Below, piece by piece: positions 1-36,460 of a stretch of DNA of 37,085 bases (its first letter is position 1; each line of letters starts with the position of its first letter). A program made the translations under genes and the position numbers. This DNA comes from Chromatiales bacterium (lineage in GTDB: Bacteria > Pseudomonadota > Gammaproteobacteria > SZUA-152). Under the pieces are notes generated by a model. That model ran no database searches, had not been told where the DNA came from, and saw only the letters and a list, made by a program, of their open reading frames with translations. Location of the stretch: the NCBI GenBank assembly GCA_026999335.1, contig JALTPW010000085.1, forward strand, positions 1 through 37,085, in the 5' to 3' direction.

Positions 1-237
1 CACCTCACGGCCCAGGCTGTCATAGATGCGCAGACTGACTCTGCCAGGCTGCTCCAGCGTGAAGCTGATCGAGGTTGAGGGATTGAACGGATTGGGATAG
101 TTCTGCTGCAACGTAAAGCCCCCGGGTGTTGCGGTGCTGCCCCTGCGATCGACACTGGTCACCACGGCGAAATTAAAGCCGCGCACAATAAAAACGCTAA
201 CAATGACACAATAATAGGCAAAAAAAAACTTTGACAT
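1..237 (-). pseudogene. Partial ORF encoding a T9SS-type C-terminal sorting domain (Por secretion tail / FlgD-Ig-like); probable host gene fragment truncated by the prophage end
   Basis: My minus-strand translation reads ...VVTSVDRRGSTATPGGFTLQQNYPNPFNPSTSISFTLEQPGRVSLRIYDSLGREV and runs off the window. NYPNPFNPST..ISF.L......L.IYD..GREV is the classic T9SS CTD signature. The apparent N-terminus (MSKFFFAYYCVIVSVFIV, ATG at 237..235) is encoded by the AT-rich inverted-repeat/terminator sequence and is probably fortuitous. Confidence 0.5.
182..237 (+). repeat. Left terminal inverted repeat (putative transposase-binding end)
   Basis: cgcacaataaaaacgctaacaatgacacaataataggcaaaaaaaaactttgacat aligns with the reverse complement of 37019..37074. 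Shared blocks are GCACAATAA at offset 2, ACACAATAA at offset about 24, GCAAAAAA at offset 37 and GACAT at offset 52. Confidence 0.55.
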
Positions 238-252
238 AGTCAAAGTTTTTTT
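220..252 (-). terminator. Bidirectional A/T-flanked hairpin ending the late operon
   Basis: aaaaaaaaactttgac-ata-gtcaaagttttttt. The stem core is ctttgac/gtcaaag, extended by A/T pairs, and a U-run follows on the minus strand. It lies 17 nt downstream of the last late-gene stop (269). The stem is GC-poor, so the call is moderate. Confidence 0.45.
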
Positions 253-268
253 GAAAAAACAATCGTTT

Positions 269-1024
269 CTATTCTCCCGCAAGCAAAAAATACCCTATAT
301 GTACATAAGCCTGCGTCGAAGTGCGTGTCTGCACTCTAAAATGCGGCTTCATGAATGAAGTGGTGATATCGTTCATAGAGAATAAATAAACCATGCCGTC
401 AAGATTTCTGCTTGCATAAACTTCAATCCTACTATCCCTAATGTAAAATGCGAGATTTATATATTTTACCGCAGCTGTAATGTTTAACGATTTTGTTGTC
501 CTAACTGATGCCTTCTCGGTGGTAATCTGCCAGGACGTAGAACTGTCAGGGTCGAACCAAAAGTATACTGCGTCTGTTGGGTAATCAACGTTCGTCCCAG
601 CCGCCACATTGTTTGCGACTCCGGCAGAAATAATAACATTCGATACTTGCGCTGGTTTTAGCCTGGCAAAAAAGACAAAACGTGAAAAGTTGTCCAGCTG
701 TAGGCCTTCTACAAATATAGCTTGACCGCCACCAGATGTTATACCAGAAGAAAGGCGAAAACTATAAAAAGGTTCGCCTGATGAATAGCTATAAGAATCT
801 GAAAACCCAGAACCAGAGTTGACTGTAGATTTCCCCCAATCGAGCTGACCAATCGCGTTACTCCCAATAGAATTCCCTGTAAATTCATCTGTTGCAAGGG
901 CCATTTTACCCAATTTGAACGGGAAAAATTTTTCGAATCGTGTGCCTGTTGTATTTATAGCCCAATTTTGGGCTACACACGGCTGCCACAGCGCAAGTAA
1001 AAAAATAACTTTTTTGACCATCAT
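269..1024 (-). CDS. Signal-peptide-bearing protein of unknown function, last gene of the tail/late operon (possible receptor-binding or lectin-like)
   Basis: ORF 269..1057 trimmed to ATG 1024, which forms an ATGA overlap with the upstream stop at 1021..1023. The N-terminus MMVKKVIFLLALWQPCVAQ looks like a Sec signal peptide. No family recognised. Confidence 0.6.
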   Translation of the reverse strand: MMVKKVIFLLALWQPCVAQNWAINTTGTRFEKFFPFKLGKMALATDEFTGNSIGSNAIGQLDWGKSTVNSGSGFSDSYSYSSGEPFYSFRLSSGITSGGGQAIFVEGLQLDNFSRFVFFARLKPAQVSNVIISAGVANNVAAGTNVDYPTDAVYFWFDPDSSTSWQITTEKASVRTTKSLNITAAVKYINLAFYIRDSRIEVYASRNLDGMVYLFSMNDITTSFMKPHFRVQTRTSTQAYVHIGYFLLAGE

Positions 1025-3570
1025 CTTACATCCATGCTCCTTGAAGTTTCTACCCAATTAGAACCATCAAAAGTAAAAGTGAAAATATCCGCGCTATTTG
1101 CAGTTGTTGTCAATGCCGGCGCAGAACCACCAACAAACTTCATATTTACCGGCCACGAAAATGTTCTGCTTCCCGTCGCATCTTGAATAAGATGTATTTC
1201 AATTCTTTGGTTTGCAAGTGCATTTATTAGGCTGCTTGACGTTACATTTCCAGCCAAAGTTATAGAAAAAACGTTCCCTAACGATGCATCAATTGTAATA
1301 GAAGCAGAATACGATACATCCACTTTTGTAGAATAAAATGCGCGATTTGCATTGACAACATTAAGCCCAGCGTCACCCACCTCGAGCCCGGCTGATGCAC
1401 GGAATTCATCGCCAGATGCAGTCCCTAATAGATCGCCGGCTATTCTTTTTAAGGCTAAATCAAACGTAGCCCCATCTGGCGCCCATCGCAATACACCATC
1501 GCCGGTAATAAAAAAACGTGGTGAGCTCCCGGTAACCTCCATAAATTCTATAGCTGTCTCACCAGCGCCAGCAAGATAGCGATATGCAGCATTTGTGCCG
1601 TATCGACGTACTCGATAATCTTTTTGTTCTGTTATCGCAGCATTGTTTGCACCCGTTGTATCTACTTGCGTAGTGATATTCCCGTTATAGTTTGGGTTGA
1701 TGATATTTACAAATTCGACATAATCTTCAACCGCGAACGCAGTCGCACCTGTCACGCTTGCATCAAAGACACCACCAATCCACGTTACGTGTCCAACTGT
1801 ACCATTTGTTGATGAAGTGCCACCCAACCAGACTGATTTCACTGGTTTTGGCGTGCCGGAATTATCTGATTGTTGCGACCTACACCCAACTGCAGTAACA
1901 GTTCTGGCGCTTTCTATCCTGTAGTTTGCTGTTGCGTTATGTTCTCCCACTGAATTAAACAGATTCACCGTCATCGTCGCATTTGACGATGACGAAACTT
2001 TGTACGTATGATGTCCATATCGCCCATTCCCCCCAATGAAATTATTTTGACTCGTAAGATACCAGACGAAAAGATTAAAGCCATCGCGTCCATTATCTGC
2101 TATCTGAGTGTTTTCGATGAGGATATTATCGATCGGCTCAAACGTTCCGTCTGAAGTAATCCCATCTGAACCATTTTGTTCAATTTGGCAACCAATGACC
2201 CTTGTCAAAAGAGCATGATCGTCTCGCCCCCCAACTACAAAATTATCTCTTTGTAAACGGATGCCATGCCTGCCAAATCCCTTTATCCAAACAGACTTTA
2301 ACTCAAACAGTATCCATGTTCGCACATAAATCCCATCATTGTTCCCAGAACCCATTCCCCGCCCAAAAAGGCCTAAATTATGAATTTTTATATTTTGTAA
2401 GTGACCGTCGAAATTGTCAGTTGTTTCCCTATCTAAACCCTGAAATTTCAACAAACTTCCAGATGAATCACGCTTAAATATACGGCTTTTGTTCATACCG
2501 TCGCCAAAGACCTGAATCCCCTGCTTCAAAGAAGACGTGTCTGTAATCACATAGAGTAATGAATCAACGAAATAATCACCTGGAGGAATATAAATTGGCG
2601 CATTCGCTTCGCCTGCGGCATCTATAGCCGCTTGGAATGCAGGTGTATCATTTGTTGCACTGTCCCCCTTTGCACCAAACCATCTTACATTTATAAATTT
2701 TGTTGTCCCCGGCGCAAACTCCAAGCTATCAATATTCCCGAATACCCATTGCACAGGCCCCGGATCAACTACAGCGGCCTCAATACGCAGTTTTCTGGTA
2801 ACCTGCAAGCCACCCCCTCGAACAGGGCGTAATGTTACCGCTGCTGGGATCGTATCCCGTGCCGCGGCGGCGATTGCAAACTTTTGCGTCAAATCGAGAG
2901 TATGCCCACCACGGGCAACGGCCGTATCAATAGCAGCCTCAACGCTAACAAAATTAGCCGGGTTCAGACCACGTTCATCAAATTCGTCCTGAATGGCCTT
3001 CATTGACCCGCCATATTTCATATCGATCTCAACATTTCCGTTATTTTTCACCGTCATGCGAGTAGCGCCTTTGGTCTGCAGAGCTATCTCGCCAACCCCA
3101 TTAAGATCAGTGTCAGCTCCGATAGTCGTTGAGCCGGCGTTTGTGACGCCACCAGTACCGGATGCAATCCCTGTAAGACCAGAGCCGTCTCCGATAAACG
3201 TCGTCGCTTGTATCTGGCCGGCGAGCTTTAGTGTATCACTGCTCCCGGTTGAGCTGATGCTCGTAAACTTATCTGCAATGATGGATAATTTATTTGAACC
3301 AATCCAAACGCCAGTTTTCCAGGATAACCCATCAACATAAATATCATATTCACCGTTCGCAACGGCGTTATGATAATAGACGCCAGGCGTCGTCGAGCTC
3401 TCAGTCAGATCATACGCTTTTGATCCGTTTTGATACAAATCTACATCTTTACCTGGTACCAGTTTCCCGGTTGCCTGGCTGCGGAGTTTTACCTCCCAGT
3501 ACGATGTCAGCACTTGCGCAACCAACAGGGCAGGCAAAAAAAGAAGCAGAACAGAAATCGCTTTTCTCAT
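1021..3570 (-). CDS. Tailspike-like right-handed beta-helix protein (pectate-lyase superfamily depolymerase) with a signal-peptide-like N-terminus
   Basis: FINVRWFGAKGDSATNDTPAFQAAIDAAGEANAPIYIPPGDYFV is typical of the start of Pectate_lyase_3-type beta-helix domains, and later degenerate beta-helix turns follow. ATG 3570 has an AGGTG RBS 6 nt upstream; a GTG at 3579 is the alternative start. The N-terminus is MRKAISVLLLFLPALLVAQ. Confidence 0.75.
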   Translation of the reverse strand: MRKAISVLLLFLPALLVAQVLTSYWEVKLRSQATGKLVPGKDVDLYQNGSKAYDLTESSTTPGVYYHNAVANGEYDIYVDGLSWKTGVWIGSNKLSIIADKFTSISSTGSSDTLKLAGQIQATTFIGDGSGLTGIASGTGGVTNAGSTTIGADTDLNGVGEIALQTKGATRMTVKNNGNVEIDMKYGGSMKAIQDEFDERGLNPANFVSVEAAIDTAVARGGHTLDLTQKFAIAAAARDTIPAAVTLRPVRGGGLQVTRKLRIEAAVVDPGPVQWVFGNIDSLEFAPGTTKFINVRWFGAKGDSATNDTPAFQAAIDAAGEANAPIYIPPGDYFVDSLLYVITDTSSLKQGIQVFGDGMNKSRIFKRDSSGSLLKFQGLDRETTDNFDGHLQNIKIHNLGLFGRGMGSGNNDGIYVRTWILFELKSVWIKGFGRHGIRLQRDNFVVGGRDDHALLTRVIGCQIEQNGSDGITSDGTFEPIDNILIENTQIADNGRDGFNLFVWYLTSQNNFIGGNGRYGHHTYKVSSSSNATMTVNLFNSVGEHNATANYRIESARTVTAVGCRSQQSDNSGTPKPVKSVWLGGTSSTNGTVGHVTWIGGVFDASVTGATAFAVEDYVEFVNIINPNYNGNITTQVDTTGANNAAITEQKDYRVRRYGTNAAYRYLAGAGETAIEFMEVTGSSPRFFITGDGVLRWAPDGATFDLALKRIAGDLLGTASGDEFRASAGLEVGDAGLNVVNANRAFYSTKVDVSYSASITIDASLGNVFSITLAGNVTSSSLINALANQRIEIHLIQDATGSRTFSWPVNMKFVGGSAPALTTTANSADIFTFTFDGSNWVETSRSMDVR

Positions 3571-23538: not shown

Positions 23539-23763
23539 CTACTTCACCAGCCAATCTGTTATGACCTTGATGTAGATGCCGGCAATCATACCGATGAGAA
23601 ACCAGTTCTGCTTTCTGATTGAGTTTACGATGTATTCGATTTTGTCCACGCGACGAATCAGACCGATCTCGCCGTTTCCATCACCATACAGACTGCGACG
23701 GATATTCGTGACATCTTTCTCTAACTTTTCAACACGCAGAACAAAAGCATCGAGGTTGGGCAT
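23539..23763 (-). CDS. Small protein with C-terminal transmembrane helix (holin-like or other lysis/assembly factor)
   Basis: ORF 23539..23964 trimmed to ATG 23763 (MPNLDAFVLRVEKLEK...), with a GGAG 5 nt upstream. The C-terminus NWFLIGMIAGIYIKVITDWLV is hydrophobic. It is the first gene of the late operon. Confidence 0.45.
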   Translation of the reverse strand: MPNLDAFVLRVEKLEKDVTNIRRSLYGDGNGEIGLIRRVDKIEYIVNSIRKQNWFLIGMIAGIYIKVITDWLVK

Positions 23764-23962
23764 AGAGGCTCCGGGACAGTTCAGAATTTTAAAAATAGCG
23801 CGGGTGGCCCGGGAAGAGAAAACCACCCGCCGCAGGGCAAAGAGGCAGGAGACGACCCCTTGCCGCTCTTTGCACACGTCTGGGGGGAAAATACGGTATA
23901 ACTCCTTGTTTTTGCGCCGGATGGTGAACAAACATGAACAAAGAGCGAAGATAATAGAAGGC

Positions 23963-24001
23963 ATAAAAAAGGCGCAAATCCTTAATTTAGAAGTGCGCCT
24001 T
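23963..24001 (-). terminator. Rho-independent terminator after the TcmP/DUF5131 cassette
   Basis: The minus strand reads aaggcgca-(17 nt loop)-tgcgcctt followed by TTTTTTAT, starting about 30 nt after the DUF5131 stop (24034). Confidence 0.55.
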
Positions 24002-24033
24002 ATTGAGGGGAAGAAGTTGAAGTAATCTATGAG

Positions 24034-24759
24034 CTATGCAACCACTGCATGTTTATTCGGCATTTGGTCCCAGGTGCGGCCGTCGAGATGTCTGCCCGTT
24101 TTCTTTTTTTGTACGCCGCCCCATTGCTTAAAGAAAAAAGGAACACCTGCTCTTGTGCACTGGTCGCGCAAATCACGTACCCAGGAAGGAGACATTGGAC
24201 GAGCATGAGGGCCGGATTCCCCGCCAACAATAACCCAGGATATTCCACTCAAATTGATAACACCGAGCGACTCAAGCAGTGGCTCGACTGACAAAAAACG
24301 GACAGCAGCAGAAACAGTACGTAAGTGGTCAATACGGTATAAAGACTTGCGGTCTTCCACAGACACGCCTACCCATATATTGGGATACCATTCCAGAATA
24401 TTCGACAGTTCCAGCAGTCTGGCAGAACGCTTGGTTAAAATCTGAAAATTATGCCAATAAGCCCGACACATCGTATCAAAGACTGCTCTGATAAAAGCAT
24501 CAGGAACGTCTTTATGGAACAGATCGCTCATGGAGTTAACGAAAATAGTCCGTGGTTTTTTCCAGCGCAGAGGTAATTCGATGAGATCCTCATGTAGCGT
24601 GACTGAAAAACCATTTCTATAACGAGGGTTCCTCATGGCATATAGGCGTTTTGCCATGGTTTCAGCATAACAATGCTTGCAACCCTGGCTGACTTTATCA
24701 CATCCAGTCACTGGGTTCCAGGTCGATTCAGTCCACTCGATTTTACTGTTTCCCGCCAT
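24034..24759 (-). CDS. Three-Cys-motif protein, DUF5131 / phage Gp37-Gp68 family
   Basis: The N-terminus [33 protein letters not shown] (KIEWT..TWNP..GC......GC..CYA) is the family hallmark, with Cys20-x6-Cys27-x2-Cys30. The 241-aa size is typical. It overlaps the 3' end of the TcmP gene by 17 nt. Confidence 0.8.
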
Positions 24760-25861
24760 TTTGTTCTCCTTTCAGGATTAGCAATGGATTAGCTTTTTTG
24801 CTGAATCTTCCTGAATATTCTTCGGCAGAAATAAGGCCGTCTTTCCTGTACCTTCTTATGATTTGAGCAAGATGCTTGGGCAGCCAGAGTTCACTGAGCA
24901 ATCGTTGATCGAGTTCCTGCCAGCGCTCAGAACTATCCTTTAGTTGGTTATGTAGCCATGTTTCAAGCGGTTTCAAATCTGGTTCCGGGGTAATCAATAC
25001 AGCCTGTTGTGGGTCATCAGAACTGCGAGCATAAAAACCGCCATCCGGGCAGATTTTCCAGATAACATTTTTCATTACATCCCTGCCCTTATCACTGTCA
25101 GTAAAGTGTGCTAGAATATAACGCTCTCTATTATTCTTCCCGAGCATTTTTATTGATGTTACCCATTTTGCGCCGTAAACATCTTTCAGCAATGTGATTG
25201 CTTTTTCCGCGCGCTCACCATAGTCAAGGCTTCTATCAATATCCCGCCACCTTTCTCCATTGAACACACTGTCCAGAGTTGATGAACTGACACCTCTTTT
25301 AAGGACATTAGCCATTTGCATATCCATTTCACGCCACATGATATTGACAAATAGCTCAACCCGGCCCGCTTTAAAAAGCTGAGAGAGAATGTCGCCCGGA
25401 ATAGTAAAACCAAAAGGATCAACAAAAACAAAAGCAGTTGCAAGCCGGCTGCTTGTTTTCTCCAGATGCGACAATATGCTCTTTAATGTCTTGAAACAAT
25501 CATCTGCACTGACAGATGCATAGACGCCTTTTGGAATATCATCTTTTAAAGATTTTATGTGTTTTATCAAAAGATCAGCATTCGTTTGATCTTTTTCCAT
25601 AAAAATAAAACGGACTTCGCTGTTTCCCAAAATGTTGTGAAGATGGCTATGAGATAAAAGAGTTTTTATCGCCACGAGTGGAGAAGCGTCTTCACCTGTC
25701 GTGAACTTCCCCCGGCCGGCATGGGTTTCAAGATATAAGATACGGTCGTAAGAAAAGCCCAGTATGGGGAACCAGGCCTTTAAATATTCGCGGACAATTT
25801 TGTGTTTTGCATACTGGAGAGGAAGAGGCCTCGCCCAATGTTTCTCATTTGCATCCTGCAT
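24743..25861 (-). CDS. tcmP: Three-Cys-motif partner protein TcmP-like (RlmJ-like methyltransferase-fold candidate)
   Basis: It lies immediately upstream of the DUF5131 gene and overlaps it. Motifs [27 protein letters not shown] and FVFVDPFGF parallel E. coli RlmJ motifs (HADVLKH, LYLDTHAGAGRY, SPLIA, ILIDPPYE). The start was chosen at ATG 25861 (GGGGA 7 nt upstream); ATG 25879 and 25963 are alternatives. Confidence 0.7.
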
Positions 25862-26014
25862 GGTAATATCCCCTTTCATCCTGAAGTTAATCATCAATAA
25901 ATACGTCGTTCCTAACGCCTTCCTGTACAACCTAAAATGGGCGAATGCAGATATATATTTCACTGCTTATGCTTATATCACCAGCATAAGGACGGCACAG
26001 CCATCGCTTTTTTC

Positions 26015-26038
26015 AAAAACGACACCGGTGTCGTTTTT
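26015..26038. repeat. Palindrome A of a CACCGGTG-centred family (terminator-like)
   Basis: aaaaacgacaccggtgtcgttttt is a perfect 24-bp palindrome. It is preceded by cgcttttttcaaa, as is copy D. Confidence 0.6.
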
Positions 26039-26044
26039 ACATCC

Positions 26045-26130
26045 CCTTACGCTCAAATCGGCCACCGGTGGGCGATTTGACAGTTTCGTCATATTTTCTT
26101 TTTTCTCTCTTCTATTTCCGCCGCGATCAG
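26045..26130. repeat. Direct repeat copy 1 (duplicate of the repressor gene 3' end plus downstream palindrome)
   Basis: It aligns with 26243..26328 at an offset of 198 bp, with about five mismatches by eye. It contains palindrome B, caaatcggccaccggtgggcgatttg (26054..26079). Confidence 0.7.
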
Positions 26131-26150
26131 TTTGCCAACCAGCCGGCTGA
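26089..26150 (-). pseudogene. Remnant of a repressor C-terminus (..LSRLVGKLIAAEIEERKKKI*)
   Basis: My translation of the minus strand gives LSRLVGKLIAAEIEERKKKI-stop, against LELVGKLIAAEIEERKKKI-stop in the intact repressor. There is no credible upstream start: an in-frame TAG lies upstream and the only ATG is the M in ILMLSR. Confidence 0.55.
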
Positions 26151-26242
26151 GCATCAGAATGTAAAAACCCGCCAACCCGATGAAGTCTTGCTTTTCACTA
26201 AATAGCCATATTTTTTGAGCATATTTAGCATTTTTCGCAATG

Positions 26243-26328
26243 CCCTACGCTCAAATCGGCCACCGGTGGCCGATTTGACAATTTCGTCATATTTTCTTTT
26301 TTCTCTCCTCTATCTCCGCCGCGATCAG
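26243..26328. repeat. Direct repeat copy 2 (true repressor 3' end plus palindrome C)
   Basis: It contains the perfect 26-bp palindrome caaatcggccaccggtggccgatttg (26252..26277), 10 nt downstream of the repressor stop. Confidence 0.7.
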
Positions 26329-26823
26329 CTTACCCACGAGCTCCAGCTCTTTTGTATCCAGCCGGTTAAGTATCCGGATAAATGCCACCACCTCATCCCC
26401 GCCCTGTCGTACAAAGCCGGGCGGCTGCATTTTGTATGACGACAACTCGCTACTGTAAACCATACGCTCGCCCTGCGCTGCATCCCGAACCTGCATGTTC
26501 TCAGCAGCCGGGGGCGTGGCCCCCTCGCTTTTTTCAAATCGGACACCGGTAGCCGATTTGGATTCGTCCTCACGCGCAAGCAATGGCTCGCCTTCGCCGG
26601 TCAGAAGCCAGTCCACGTTGATTCCCATCGCTTCAAGTTTAGCTCGGGTTTTGGCTGTAGGCCTTCTGTTGTTCTTTATAATCGTATATAGTGTCCCCTT
26701 TTTTATACCTGACGTGGATAGGAAGTCAATTTTTCTTGTGTAGCCCATTTTTTTGATCAAAAATTCTAATCTTTGGCCAATATTTTTATCATCAACTATC
26801 ATTTTTAATCTTTTTCTTGACAT
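26287..26823 (-). CDS. CI-type phage repressor (XRE-family HTH, Phage_CI_repr-like)
   Basis: IGQRLEFLIKKMGYTRKIDFLSTSGIKKGTLYTII...AKLEAMGINVDWLLTGEGEP: the ..vs.dWLLtGeG ending of the HTH domain is the CI-repressor family hallmark. The gene is divergent from a Cro/Ner-like gene. Confidence 0.8.
   Translation of the reverse strand: MSRKRLKMIVDDKNIGQRLEFLIKKMGYTRKIDFLSTSGIKKGTLYTIIKNNRRPTAKTRAKLEAMGINVDWLLTGEGEPLLAREDESKSATGVRFEKSEGATPPAAENMQVRDAAQGERMVYSSELSSYKMQPPGFVRQGGDEVVAFIRILNRLDTKELELVGKLIAAEIEERKKKI
26535..26560. repeat. Palindrome D (degenerate copy inside the repressor CDS)
   Basis: caaatcggacaccggtagccgatttg has two arm mismatches and shares its left context, tcgcttttttcaaa, with palindrome A. 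Confidence 0.5.
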
Positions 26824-26890: not shown

Positions 26891-27118
26891 ATGTGCAAAA
26901 TTAAACCTGTAATTCGCGTCAGTAAGCCTGAATATAGAACAATTATCAGGAGGCGCATGGGTTTAACGCAATCAGATTTAGCGGCTATTTTAGGCTTTAG
27001 TCATCGCTATGTGACGTACCTTGAACGTGGTACAAGAAACAGCAAAAACTACGATCGCAAGCTCGAAAAGCTTTACGAACAGTACCGCAAACAATCCGCG
27101 CAGCGCAGGGCTGCATAA
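26891..27118 (+). CDS. Cro/Ner-like XRE-family HTH regulator
   Basis: 75 aa. RRRMGLTQSDLAAILGFSHRYVTYLERG is a canonical XRE HTH. It is the first gene of the early operon, divergent from the repressor. Confidence 0.75.
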   Translation: MCKIKPVIRVSKPEYRTIIRRRMGLTQSDLAAILGFSHRYVTYLERGTRNSKNYDRKLEKLYEQYRKQSAQRRAA

Positions 27119-29889: not shown

Positions 29890-31503
29890 ATGAAATTGGA
29901 CAAAGAACACATCGACATCATCAGGGAAGAGATGGCGGGTTTGACAGGGAAATACGCAAGGAGAAAAGCACGGATGCTGGCGGAACAGTTCGGTTGTGAT
30001 GTTACGCGTGTGTACCACCATAGCCGGGACGTGCGCCCACGGCGCAGTCGCCGCGCGGACAAAGGCGCCATGAAAGCGATAGAGGAAGATGCATTCACCT
30101 CGCTTTCGTGGTACACCGTGCGCGGAGATTTCAGCGCACCAACGATTTGCGAGGTAGCACGGGCGAACAATCTCGGTTCCGTTAACCCGGCGACATACAA
30201 CAGGCATCTGCGGCAAAAAGGAATCAGCCGAAGCAGAAATAAAAAAGACCTGCGACCATACGTGAGTTTTGAAGCGAAATACCCGAACCAGCTTCATCAA
30301 ATCGATTCCACCGTAGCACAACAGTTCTACCTGGATGATGACGGGACTATCGGATATGAAGGGCCGCATCAACGCTATAAAAACAAACCCGGTAACAAAA
30401 AACCGCGCATCACACTGTTGGCCCTGCGGGATGATTATAGTCGCGCGCTCTATGCACGCTTTTATCTCGGCAACCATACCTACGCGTGGATGGATTTTCT
30501 TTATCACGCCTGGCGCGCGAAGGATGATATCCCCGGGTTCCCATTTCGCGGTATGCCACACTTCATTTACACAGATAACGACTCCGTTGTAAAGTCAAAA
30601 AAGTTCACCAACGCGATGCGGATTCTGGATGTAAAAATCATCAAGCACGAAGTCGGCAATTCGCGCGCAAAAGGGAAAGTCGAAAACTCCTTCAAATTTC
30701 TGCAGGAATTCGAGAAGAATACCAAATTCGGCAAGTGGAAATCGCTGGAGCAGGCGAACGCTGACCTCGCTGATTATCTCTACTACGTCAACAATCGCCC
30801 GCACAGCACGACCGGGGTGGCGCCTTTCGAGCGCTGGGTCAGTATCCCTGCAAAACGCTTAATCGATGTGCCGGACGAAGACATTATGCGCCTGTTGCAT
30901 ATGGATACCATCCGGCGCAAGATCAACCGCGACATGTGCGTTAAGATCGATGGCAGAGCGTGGCAACTCCCCTTCCGTGAGCCCTTTCTGAAATTCATCG
31001 ACGAGATGGTGGAAATCTACCGCATGCCGGGTGAGCGGGAAAAAATATGGGTTGTACTCAACGACAAAGAGTACGAAGTCCAATACACCGAAAAAGGATT
31101 GCGCGGGCTCGGCCGGCACGAGGCCCCGCCGGAGCCGGAATTTGTCAAACACAAACGGGAAATCGAAGCACAGGAAAACCCCGGTTTGCGCATCCGGGGA
31201 ATTTACAAAGAAGCGTGGCGGCGCCCCTATATCTCGCAACAGGGGCAGCCCTTCGACGAGAGTCGCGTCCCCGGGGATGGTGTGAAAATCGACCAGGTTA
31301 TGCGTAGCAGAACGTGGTTCGTCCTGGAGCTGCAGGCAGAGGGTTGGTGCAGTGCACCGCCGACAGCAGAAGAAACAGCCTGGATCGAAACGATCATGGC
31401 TGGAAAAACAGAGCATCCGGAAAGTTATTTCCGCGATGTGTTGCAGCAGCTCAAAAACGGCGACATGGCGATAAACCAACGTCGTGTCGCCGGGCAGGCA
31501 TAA
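29890..31503 (+). CDS. DDE transposase, Mu A-type (rve integrase core)
   Basis: The catalytic triad context is HQIDST (D), IYTDNDS (D) and AKGKVENSF (E), with retroviral-integrase-like spacing. It has an N-terminal HTH-like region, is 537 aa, and is followed by an AAA+ partner gene. Confidence 0.85.
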   Translation: MKLDKEHIDIIREEMAGLTGKYARRKARMLAEQFGCDVTRVYHHSRDVRPRRSRRADKGAMKAIEEDAFTSLSWYTVRGDFSAPTICEVARANNLGSVNPATYNRHLRQKGISRSRNKKDLRPYVSFEAKYPNQLHQIDSTVAQQFYLDDDGTIGYEGPHQRYKNKPGNKKPRITLLALRDDYSRALYARFYLGNHTYAWMDFLYHAWRAKDDIPGFPFRGMPHFIYTDNDSVVKSKKFTNAMRILDVKIIKHEVGNSRAKGKVENSFKFLQEFEKNTKFGKWKSLEQANADLADYLYYVNNRPHSTTGVAPFERWVSIPAKRLIDVPDEDIMRLLHMDTIRRKINRDMCVKIDGRAWQLPFREPFLKFIDEMVEIYRMPGEREKIWVVLNDKEYEVQYTEKGLRGLGRHEAPPEPEFVKHKREIEAQENPGLRIRGIYKEAWRRPYISQQGQPFDESRVPGDGVKIDQVMRSRTWFVLELQAEGWCSAPPTAEETAWIETIMAGKTEHPESYFRDVLQQLKNGDMAINQRRVAGQA

Positions 31504-31521: not shown

Positions 31522-32679
31522 ATGAAAGGAGAAAACAAAAGATACCGGCTGCACGAGATACTCGTAACCTGTGGGGTGTCGTATCGACTTCTCGCACAGG
31601 AAGCGGGGATCGCGCGCACGGTACTGTACGAAATCGTCCGCTGGCAGCGGTTCCCAAAACGGCAGAATCGCGCAACAGTCATTGCGAACATAGAAAACGC
31701 ATTACGCCGGCAGGGCATCGCCGCGGAAACAATTCAGACGTGCTGGGAACTTGTCCCGGTCACGACCACCAGCCCGCTGAAAAAAACCGGGCTTGCACAC
31801 GTACTCAAAGGAGGCGCACAAGTGATACCTCAGGAGATTTTGCGCGAGTTGGGTCTGAACAAAGACCCTTTTACAAACGAGCTGGAAAGCATCGCAGACG
31901 TATTTGCGACGCCGCAACACAACCATGCCCTCAGCAAGATGCTTGATGCGGCAAAGAACTGCAAATTCATCGGGCTTTGGGGCAAGGTAGGCAGTGGTAA
32001 GACAGTGCTAAAAACTCTCTTCGAAGAGCGGCTCGGAATGGAGAAAAACTACCTCATCTCCGAACCATTTATCAACCAGAAAAACCGGCTGAAACCCAGC
32101 TCTCTGGCGGACGCCATGATCCAGGACTTCCTCTTTCTGCGCGGCGGTACCGGGACGAACGGCCAGCTTACAGCCCCACAGAATCTTGAAGCGAAAAACC
32201 GCTGGCTCAAGCGCATTATGCGTGAAAAAAGCCGGGATGGGAAAAAGCTGATCCTGATGATCGACGAAGCTCACGATCTGACTCTCGATACTTTGAAAGC
32301 GCTGAAACGCTTTCACGAGCTGCAGGACGGTTTCCGCAAACAGCTCGCGATTATCCTGCTTGGGCAGGAAGAACTCTATCATAAGATGGGTGACCCGCGC
32401 ATTCGCGAAGTCGCCGCGCGGATAGACCTGGTACAGTTGCAACCGATCCCCAGACAGACACAGAAATACCTCGAATATAAAATTACCAGGGCGGGAGGCG
32501 AGCTGGAACGTGTGTTGACCTCAGACGCTATCAAAACTATCACTCGGCTGCTGCCGCAGGCAAACCCGCTTGAGATCAACGTCCTCGCCAGTTCTGCCAT
32601 TATCACCGCCTGGCGATCCGGCAGTATGCCGGCAACCGGCGAAGCGGTCGAGCTGGCTTATAAGGAGATCGGCACATGA
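31522..32679 (+). CDS. MuB-like AAA+ transposition ATPase (target DNA activator)
   Basis: Walker A is GLWGKVGSGKT and Walker B is LILMIDEAHDL. It has an N-terminal HTH (LLAQEAGIARTVLYEIV) and lies immediately downstream of the transposase. Confidence 0.8.
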   Translation: MKGENKRYRLHEILVTCGVSYRLLAQEAGIARTVLYEIVRWQRFPKRQNRATVIANIENALRRQGIAAETIQTCWELVPVTTTSPLKKTGLAHVLKGGAQVIPQEILRELGLNKDPFTNELESIADVFATPQHNHALSKMLDAAKNCKFIGLWGKVGSGKTVLKTLFEERLGMEKNYLISEPFINQKNRLKPSSLADAMIQDFLFLRGGTGTNGQLTAPQNLEAKNRWLKRIMREKSRDGKKLILMIDEAHDLTLDTLKALKRFHELQDGFRKQLAIILLGQEELYHKMGDPRIREVAARIDLVQLQPIPRQTQKYLEYKITRAGGELERVLTSDAIKTITRLLPQANPLEINVLASSAIITAWRSGSMPATGEAVELAYKEIGT

Positions 32680-36046: not shown

Positions 36047-36460
36047 ATGCCACATTCCTATAAAAAACTCTTTGGCCTGGCAAAAGAGCTGGGTATGTCT
36101 CAGGACGATTTAAGAGCAGGAGCCGCGTCATATACTGGCGTGGCTTCTTTACGTAGTTTGAATAGGGAGCAGTTGCGCAACTACGAAAAAAAACTCGCAT
36201 CAATTGCCCGTGGCAATTGGCGCCGGCAGCGGGAAAATATCAAAAAGGGATTTAAGCCGCATGAGACCCTCGGCGTGGAACAATACGAATTCGTTCTTGA
36301 TCTTGTCACAACGATTTTTTCAGATATTGCTGCATTCCGTGCCTGGCTTCGGCGTTATTATAAAAGAAGCCACGAGAGTTTTGTCGACGTAGATGAAATG
36401 AGGGGGATCATAGTCGCAATGGAAGAAATGAGGGCCAGAGGATACAAATGCAAAAAATAG
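36047..36460 (+). CDS. gemA: GemA-like protein (Mu gp16 / DUF1018)
   Basis: YKKLFGLAKELGMSQDDLRAGAASYTGVASLRSLNREQLRNYEKKL resembles the GemA N-terminus (iH.ak..LglddD.YR..l....G..S...L...el..v). It lies late in the early arm, as in Mu. Confidence 0.55.
   Translation: MPHSYKKLFGLAKELGMSQDDLRAGAASYTGVASLRSLNREQLRNYEKKLASIARGNWRRQRENIKKGFKPHETLGVEQYEFVLDLVTTIFSDIAAFRAWLRRYYKRSHESFVDVDEMRGIIVAMEEMRARGYKCKK

Follow-up and report, generated by a model that had tools for sequence, protein, structure and literature searches.

The DNA analysed here, referred to as the window, is the entire 37,085-nucleotide (nt) contig of a Mu-like transposable temperate phage (JALTPW010000085.1, assembly GCA_026999335.1, from a Chromatiales bacterium). 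Between the immunity repressor and the late operon, this phage carries a 1.9-kilobase (kb) cassette with clear boundaries, made of two genes that encode TcmP (a three-Cys-motif partner protein) and a protein of the DUF5131 family. The identity of the locus as a genuine TcmP-DUF5131 pair is almost certain. The pair is of a known but uncharacterised kind, and the window copy is an exchangeable accessory cassette located downstream of a CI-type repressor. The genes and features that define the cassette are the following.

24743..25861, minus strand: tcmP, three-Cys-motif partner protein, 372 amino acids (aa); family TIGR04474, with a predicted RlmJ-like class I S-adenosylmethionine (SAM)-dependent methyltransferase fold and a C-terminal winged helix-turn-helix (wHTH).
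24034..24759, minus strand: DUF5131 / phage Gp37-Gp68 family protein, 241 aa; family PF07505, radical-SAM-like.
24743..24775, minus strand: gene overlap and GGAG Shine-Dalgarno sequence of the DUF5131 gene, within the 3' end of tcmP (read from the sequence).
23963..24001, minus strand: intrinsic-terminator-like hairpin (AAGGCGCA...UGCGCCUU), stem 24001..23969 followed by U6 at 23968..23963; folding free energy -15.1 kcal/mol, z -2.6.
25862..26033, minus strand: tcmP upstream region, with an AAGGGG ribosome-binding site at 25870-25875; leader 100% conserved, identical in 4 contigs.
26034..26143, minus strand: 110-nt direct duplicate of 26232-26341 (87% identity, repeat search), a stretch made up of the repressor gene's 3' end and a 28-nt palindrome.
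26287..26823, minus strand: CI-type immunity repressor; Pfam HTH_19 and Phage_CI_repr, both under the gathering cut-offs, and PHROG transcriptional repressor families 8, 4 and 2328.

The original prediction, made from the DNA letters, described two genes overlapping by 17 nt. This overlap (24743-24759) was found on the minus strand at the expected place, and the protein strings quoted with it, including FVFVDPFGF and Cys-x6-Cys-x2-Cys, were all present. The upstream open reading frame (ORF) listed by the ORF tool ran from a GTG codon over 24743..25963 (406 aa). On sequence grounds, the true start of tcmP is the ATG at 25861, which gives 372 aa, because homologues are 366-372 aa long, 372-aa genes were called on identical or near-identical contigs and the AAGGGG Shine-Dalgarno sequence lies 8 nt upstream. 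Translational coupling of the two genes is plausible, since GGAG is found 7 nt upstream of the DUF5131 ATG within the 3' part of tcmP. The GC content of the cassette was 44.3% (TcmP 42.5%, DUF5131 47.0%) against 49.3% for the contig, which ranks it among the 7% of windows of its size that are poorest in GC; the cassette had been called clearly more AT-rich than its surroundings, and the difference was real but modest (5 percentage points).

The boundaries of the cassette were also found as described. The repressor is located upstream and in the same orientation, both being on the minus strand; hairpin palindromes separate it from tcmP, and the terminator-like hairpin, located exactly at 23963..24001, closes the cassette before the late operon. 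A hairpin at ~26010-26033 (AAAAACGACACCGGTGTCGTTTTT), with A- and T-runs on its flanks, probably stops read-through from the repressor, and the promoter of the cassette is expected downstream of it. A perfect 28-nt palindrome (TCAAATCGGCCACCGGTGGCCGATTTGA) was found at 26251-26278 and again at 26053-26080; the motif had 6 matches against 0.02 expected, and was present nowhere else in the contig. The same 110-nt duplicate structure was found in the near-identical contig L001. The duplicate is likely a recombination scar at the cassette junction; alternatively, the palindrome copies could form a set of protein-binding sites. A third related copy of the palindrome was observed within the repressor coding sequence (26531-26560), the fourth being the variant hairpin at ~26010-26033.

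Profile searches indicated that both proteins belong to the families proposed for them, the curated cut-offs being passed in each case. TIGR04474 matched TcmP with 144.3 bits (cut-off 53) over residues 51-304 of the 406-aa ORF (profile positions 4-262/263). PF07505 matched DUF5131 with 347.3 bits (cut-off 28.9, E 5.7e-104) over residues 4-234 (profile positions 1-243/243), and phrog_2045 matched the same protein at 4e-101. Both proteins are basic, with isoelectric points of 9.1 (TcmP) and 9.6 (DUF5131). The TcmP family comprises ~5,000 clusters at 50% identity. DUF5131 is abundant, with > 8,000 clusters at 90% identity scored in one search, and ~70% identical across phyla.

Sequence and profile searches of TcmP and DUF5131 against the PDB returned no significant match, and only the fold comparison was therefore informative. 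The AlphaFold2 model of TcmP (predicted local distance difference test, pLDDT, 83) had as its best PDB match in Foldseek the methyltransferase RlmJ (6qe5_A, E 5.5e-7, TM-score 0.41 query / 0.53 target, 332 columns). E. coli RlmJ, the methyltransferase of 23S ribosomal RNA (rRNA) producing m6A2030, has motif I (DTHAG-x-G), a GSPL loop and a motif IV of the DP-x-aromatic type in common with TcmP: the RlmJ segments YLDTHAGAGRY and GSPLIA align with TcmP through the shared DTHAGxG and GSPL, and TcmP reads LETHAGRG at motif I and VDPFGF at motif IV. Unlike RlmJ, TcmP is, in this alignment, without the inserted helical subdomain between the motifs and has ~180 extra residues, which include the wHTH. 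The RlmJ-type resemblance that had been proposed by eye stood in the top Foldseek match and in the local motifs; it did not extend to a significant sequence match or to the helical insert. Membership of the RlmJ family itself was rejected at the level of hidden Markov models (HMMs): a TcmP profile searched against the RlmJ chains in the PDB gave E 1.3, with the DTHAGxG segment alone aligning. The model indicates that TcmP is RlmJ-like in fold and motif logic, outside the RlmJ family. No Pfam family matched the methyltransferase domain in 38 TcmP members, even at E <= 1, and a BFVD fold search with TcmP returned generic class I methyltransferases only. A PF22560 winged helix was found by Pfam at the C-terminus of 28 of the 38 members. 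Residues invariant in the family include K-H close to the N-terminus, THAGRG, SP, D-P-(Y/F)-G-F and, following strand 2, an acidic residue; the window TcmP keeps all of them, and reads DPFGF at the D-P-(Y/F)-G-F site.

DUF5131 displayed several features in line with the radical-SAM-like reading originally given to it. Its Cys cluster is C20-x6-C27-x2-C30, and the three residues were invariant in 38 close homologues. Over 75 sequences (31-97% identity), C20 and C30 were conserved at 100%, C27 at 93% and C201 at 96%, and the motif G179-G-E-S-G183 was conserved at 100%. TIGR04471 (radical SAM mobile pair protein A) matched with 83 bits, below the model cut-off. The AlphaFold2 model (pLDDT 79) consisted of alternating strands and helices, and Foldseek returned weak matches in the PDB to proteins with a triosephosphate isomerase (TIM) barrel or radical-SAM fold, namely spore photoproduct lyase (SPL), MiaB, NifB and LipA/LIAS, with E 1e-3 to 1e-2. 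The highest query TM-score, 0.51, was obtained with SPL (4fhg, E 6.5e-3). Similarly to SPL, DUF5131 has a three-Cys cluster close to the N-terminus, a GGE-type motif and a predicted partial TIM barrel; it differs from SPL by its much smaller size (241 aa), its Cx6Cx2C spacing and the weakness of the fold match. The RadicalSAM.org subgroup table has an entry for DUF5131 as megacluster 5-2, beside SPL (5-3).

The original prediction assumed that the two genes are partners, and this was examined in a linkage scan comprising one genome per species and 80 TcmP loci, with adjacency defined as a DUF5131 gene within 400 nt. The phyla represented include Acidobacteriota, Planctomycetota, Gemmatimonadota, Myxococcota and Chloroflexota. 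DUF5131 adjoined TcmP in 72/80 loci, as expected for partner genes. The order was DUF5131-TcmP in 57 of these pairs, TcmP-DUF5131 in 11 and convergent in 4, so the window order is the minority arrangement (11/72). DUF5131 was split by an insertion in two further loci (L075 and L021), and 2/80 TcmP loci stop at a contig edge. The insert in L075 (9391-12039) is an IS21-like element with IstA/IstB, and in L021 (8567-9754) the gene is interrupted by an ORF of 393 aa for which Pfam gave no match. On actinobacterial plasmids, one convergent and one divergent pair were found, and the Prokaryotic Genome Annotation Pipeline (PGAP) annotates the pair there. No third conserved gene was detected near the pair beyond shared synteny and the genes of DISARM (defence island system associated with restriction-modification). 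As a member of the TIGR04474 and PF07505 partner pair, the window copy is the same in kind, with family thresholds passed, adjacent genes and the three-Cys motif; it differs from other such pairs by its location in a Mu-like phage, the TcmP-first order and the 17-nt overlap.

The two partners evolved to different extents. In Paenibacillus, Sorangium and a cyanobacterium, DUF5131 was 67-70% identical to the window protein and the TcmP partners were only remote homologues (profile E 1e-9 to 1e-12), two of them short (~300 aa). From these comparisons DUF5131 appears highly constrained and its TcmP partner variable. In Paenibacillus sp. GXUN7292 (L088, 8688-20747), a divergently oriented pair was observed in an integrative element, at its cargo end; the element encodes an integrase, HTH regulators and a D5_N primase, and an NYN-domain gene is immediately downstream of DUF5131.

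Comparison of near-identical phage contigs indicated that the cassette varies independently of the genome around it. Between the window and L001, 82/91 mismatches over 8.36 kb were located inside the cassette, corresponding to a divergence of ~4.5% in the cassette against ~0.13% in the flanks (~30-fold). In the late operon, TerL and the 175-aa and 74-aa genes were 99.8-100% identical among these contigs, and the 183 nt upstream of tcmP were 100% identical. When window positions 24000-25750 were compared with L001, L002 and L003, the synonymous divergence (dS) of the cassette was 0.10-0.22, and the ratio of nonsynonymous to synonymous divergence (dN/dS) was 0.05-0.15 for tcmP and DUF5131. The low dN/dS and the confinement of mismatches to the cassette therefore point to functional genes and an exchanged allele: both genes appear to be under purifying selection, and the cassette allele was exchanged by recombination inside an otherwise clonal phage backbone. 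The cassette had been described as a moron, and its own terminator, its differing (lower GC) composition and a variation independent of the flanking phage genes, with alleles exchanged among near-identical phages, agree with such a layout.

Defence genes were recurrent neighbours of the pair in other genomes. In L008 (1760-17103), the genes DrmD-DrmMI-DUF5131-TcmP-DrmA-DrmB-DrmC are on a single strand with short gaps, the pair being embedded in a class-1 DISARM operon. DrmA was located <= 10 kb from the pair in eight loci (L008, L009, L027, L054, L058, L060, L061 and L079), which belong to Gemmatimonadaceae, several Acidobacteriota lineages, Thermoanaerobaculia and Candidatus Multivorans. In L009 the pair is directly upstream of DrmA, in the slot held by DrmMI in L008; only DrmA, DrmB and DrmC accompany it, the 4.2 kb upstream revealed no DrmM, and a transposase gene is nearby. 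A survey of 119 immediate neighbours of the pair with PADLOC families at E <= 1e-10 identified DrmA, DrmMI, type II methyltransferases, R and S subunits of type I systems, HEC-01A and PDC-S36, among others. Where TcmP genes had no DUF5131 partner, they adjoined a methyltransferase of the Dam class, an S subunit of type I or an HSDR_N protein. Unlike L008, L009 and others, the window cassette is outside any drmABC operon: the genes flanking it are phage genes, with no DISARM gene among them.

The adjacent window genes matched both component HMMs of the phage defence candidates (PDCs) PDC-M30 and PDC-M41 (TcmP: PDC-M30A 3.3e-24, PDC-M41A 7.7e-11; DUF5131: PDC-M41B 1.4e-118, PDC-M30B 4.5e-114). 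The PADLOC PDCs come from a guilt-by-embedding screen for genes nested in bacteriophage exclusion (BREX), DISARM and type I restriction-modification (R-M) systems, and the 145 PDCs are called predictions, not tested systems, by Payne et al. (10.1101/2024.01.29.577857). The DISARM embedding behind such candidates was recovered independently here; the window copy differs from these predicted candidates in that it is not embedded in a defence system and is temperate-phage cargo beside a repressor. A limited literature search found only passing mentions of TcmP/DUF5131 and no anti-phage test of the pair; in two S. meliloti papers TcmP is mentioned, once as a neighbour of the Hna defence gene. The earlier statement that the pair is defined only bioinformatically agrees with the absence of an experimental test from this limited search, and omitted the PADLOC candidate listing. 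The pair is recognisable from NCBIfam and PADLOC, and its function is by now very testable.

DUF5131 was found in 181 phage records, and the window TcmP finds 5 by tblastn. A sensitive search revealed TcmP-like partners wherever DUF5131 was 50-58% identical to that of the window (Easley, Jablanski, BaxterFox and Synechococcus phage Ssp-JY39), and no TcmP-like partner within 3 kb of the DUF5131 genes that were 33-44% identical (TChen, phi1026b, PhiCh1, Bakery and Enterocloster CB457P2). Scans of IMG/VR for TcmP with a profile and with the single protein found none; the degenerate peptide patterns were perhaps too strict, and this result is not evidence of absence. In the Gordonia temperate phages Easley, Jablanski and BaxterFox, the pair is located in the lysogeny module, between the integrase and the immunity region. 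In Easley, the repressor gene gp40 is followed 3 nt later by the TcmP-like gp39, with DUF5131 (gp38) convergent. The layouts of Jablanski and BaxterFox are similar, and in BaxterFox the immunity repressor is directly followed by gp42, a short TcmP homologue adjacent to DUF5131. An intact plus-strand DUF5131 ORF of BaxterFox (L092, NC_031226, 4001-5733) was observed to be unannotated, genes 40 and 41 being called on the opposite strand across it. Actinobacteriophages carry prophage-mediated defence cassettes beside the immunity repressor, as established in SEA-PHAGES and Hatfull-lab work. The pair occupies this same slot in Easley, Jablanski and BaxterFox; the window phage is Mu-like and unrelated to them. 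DUF5131 was also found next to another type of methyltransferase. In Gordonia phage Bakery (L100, 1421-3975), a DUF5131 gene without TcmP overlaps the stop codon of a HaeIII/HhaI-like C5-cytosine DNA methyltransferase gene, and in Mycobacterium phage TChen (L096, 3001-6588) a 70.5%-identical orthologue of the Bakery methyltransferase is located 1.1 kb downstream of DUF5131. DUF5131 may thus work with whichever DNA methyltransferase is encoded alongside.

We tentatively propose, giving it somewhat less than an even chance, that the cassette encodes a two-enzyme SAM-dependent module which modifies a nucleic-acid base, probably in DNA, in the conflict between phage, host and mobile elements. A DNA substrate is favoured on three grounds: the pair is associated with DISARM, R-M systems and DNA methyltransferases, TcmP carries a wHTH, and DUF5131 is akin to SPL. 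In the proposed mechanism, TcmP would bind a polynucleotide and N-methylate a base, or at least capture the base in its pocket. DUF5131 would hold a [4Fe-4S] cluster on C20, C27 and C30, bind SAM at GGESG, make a 5'-deoxyadenosyl radical and act on the site of TcmP, for example on the newly added methyl group. The radical-SAM enzyme TYW1, which acts after the methyltransferase Trm5, is a precedent for methylation followed by a radical-SAM step. The genes would be expressed in the lysogen from their own promoter or by repressor read-through, and would confer a protection carried by the prophage, in which the DNA of incoming phages is excluded or damaged, or resident DNA receives a self mark. 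The outcome may be defence or exclusion, or protection of the element's own DNA. Substrate, chemistry, lysogen expression and phenotype are what we infer here; what was observed is the identity of the pair, its folds, linkage, purifying selection and cassette exchange, its defence-island context in other genomes and its adjacency to the repressor in unrelated phages.

Several results weigh against this proposal. For the family as a whole, substrate and phenotype enter it purely by inference. DUF5131 occurs without TcmP in many phages (176/181 records at blast sensitivity); because partnerless DUF5131 is common, the radical-SAM enzyme would have a role alone. The motifs of the BaxterFox TcmP homologue are degenerate (IDLMSGQP at motif I, FLDQQG at motif IV), so methyl transfer may not be essential everywhere, and the case for TcmP as a purely catalytic protein is weakened. 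Structurally, TcmP is closest to RNA methyltransferases (RlmJ, Trm5a, METTL16, the cap methyltransferase Abd1 and RlmKL), not to DNA methyltransferases. DUF5131 has weak fold matches, the best with E 1.6e-3, and its Cys spacing is Cx6Cx2C, not the canonical CX3CX2C of the radical-SAM superfamily. Accepted radical-SAM members with non-canonical Cys spacings are known; judged from the residues, the spacing lowers the radical-SAM claim without excluding membership. The pair is opposite in strand to the DISARM genes in L054, L058, L060, L061 and L079, and its embedding in DISARM could be due to a hot spot for insertion instead of a common function. Finally, the minus strand upstream of tcmP revealed no sigma-70 consensus.

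A more specific version of the two-enzyme proposal is doubtful: that the pair, together with DUF5131 combined with other DNA methyltransferases, represents the first radical-SAM-dependent system acting on DNA bases for self/non-self discrimination. In this version, a methyl mark set by the methyltransferase would be turned by the radical-SAM enzyme into a new hypermodified base or into a lesion.

An unlikely alternative is that the pair serves anti-restriction in the manner of phage Mu Mom, modifying phage and lysogen DNA so that the progeny escape restriction or modification-dependent defences. Like mom, the cassette is an accessory component of a transposable phage with a possible role in DNA base modification. 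The methyltransferase fold and wHTH of TcmP would suit such a role, DUF5131 is widespread on phages and plasmids, elements which need to evade restriction, and it is coupled to a C5 DNA methyltransferase in Bakery. The L009 pair, which occupies the DrmMI slot upstream of DrmA with no DrmM in the 4.2 kb upstream, would also be consistent with a modification function. Mom is an acetyltransferase-fold enzyme, expressed late and encoded at the right end of the Mu genome. The cassette shares no homology with Mom and none of its regulatory features, and SAM-based chemistry is predicted for it; its position beside the repressor, between the repressor and the late operon and outside the latter, fits genes expressed in the lysogen better than genes that modify phage DNA during replication. 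Most pairs are, in addition, chromosomal and located in defence islands rather than on mobile elements. Membership of a Mom-like family was rejected, as no homology was found.

It is rather improbable that the pair acts as an R-M-like or toxin-sensor defence, in which DUF5131 would damage invading or unmarked DNA by radical chemistry and TcmP would be the protective methyltransferase or a sensor. The presence of the pair on the PADLOC candidate list, its DISARM embedding and its R-M neighbours are in line with this model, as is the fact that SPL, the nearest solved relative of DUF5131, acts directly on DNA. TcmP is far more variable than DUF5131, as would be expected of a specificity or sensor subunit. 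However, a toxic effector that needs a protective methyltransferase should seldom stand alone, and partnerless DUF5131 is common in phages; moreover, BaxterFox retains the pair despite degenerate methyltransferase motifs.

The two-enzyme proposal also has to be set against a role in RNA modification, which we consider improbable. TcmP would methylate rRNA or transfer RNA and DUF5131 would elaborate the product, altering translation or shielding RNAs from ribotoxins or anticodon nucleases. An RNA target is kept alive by the RNA-methyltransferase-like neighbours of the TcmP model, the top ones all being of this type, by the label 'RNA methyltransferase' that some phage annotators give to DUF5131, and by the precedent of Trm5 followed by TYW1. 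It is opposed by genomic associations with systems directed at DNA (DISARM, type I and II R-M, Dam-/Dcm-type methyltransferases), by the wHTH domain on TcmP and by the closest radical-SAM structure being SPL, not RlmN or Cfr.

DNA repair, with DUF5131 as an SPL-like lesion lyase and TcmP as an accessory DNA-binding subunit, is highly improbable. SPL gives DUF5131 its highest query TM-score and occupies a neighbouring RadicalSAM.org cluster, and partnerless DUF5131 genes are found among phage early and DNA-metabolism genes, beside RuvC, DNA polymerase and Bet. The SPL match is nevertheless weak (E 6.5e-3, TM-score 0.51), and neither obligate pairing with a methyltransferase fold nor placement in defence islands is expected of a repair enzyme. 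That the cassette is a passenger, decaying or selfish, and at present has no function in the window phage can be set aside with near certainty: its composition differs from the flanks, it is exchanged by recombination, and family members in L075 and L021 are interrupted by insertions, but both frames are intact with all family-invariant residues, dN/dS is 0.05-0.15, and the ribosome-binding sites and the terminator are conserved.

If radical-SAM modification of DNA, or attack on it, is indeed the function of the pair, it would represent a new enzymatic principle in phage-host conflict and would explain a component repeatedly embedded in DISARM. If the self/non-self reading is true, phages, plasmids and DISARM-type islands would have a new epigenetic mark or restriction chemistry. 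The phage copy is a good experimental handle, being compact (1.9 kb), under purifying selection and available as natural allelic variants in otherwise identical backbones.

The remaining features of the window are those of the phage itself.

23539..23763, minus strand: first late-operon gene, 74 aa (gene calls on L001 and L003; kept in relatives L084-L086).
26891..27118: cro-like HTH_3 gene, divergent (Pfam).
29890-31503: transposase (phrog_310, 5e-37).
31522-32679: MuB-like ATPase (family matches of window proteins).
36047-36460: GemA (family matches of window proteins).

DUF3102 was also found among the Mu-like phage genes. The late genes run leftward from ~23.8 kb and the early genes rightward from 26.9 kb; the central immunity region was seen to split diverging early and late arms, unlike the co-linear order of Mu. 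After the 74-aa gene, the late operon continues on the strand of the cassette with a 175-aa gene, TerL (phrog_675, 6e-75) and the portal gene; no family match was obtained for the 175-aa gene, which is in the small-terminase position. These four genes are kept in relatives whose TerL is 60-64% identical. The contigs of these distant relatives stop ~120 nt upstream of the 74-aa gene (L084 and L086) or have another ORF there (L085). A megablast search of the region against cultured phages gave no match, and TerL was <= 24% identical to that of any cultured phage. Comparison of the contig ends for circularity revealed no terminal overlap, and no RNA family was matched in an Rfam scan of 23.4-27.3 kb. 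A 141-aa ORF at 23539-23964, the ATG of which is within the T-run of the terminator, is probably an artefact; gene callers and homologues back the 74-aa protein. Upstream of the 74-aa gene, ~270 nt are non-coding and contain an imperfect inverted repeat of 19 nt (23864-23882 and 23929-23947); they could form the late promoter region. The sole other region as AT-rich as the cassette is the distal late operon at window positions 1-2800 (852-aa and 262-aa ORFs), with a GC fraction of 0.40-0.45.

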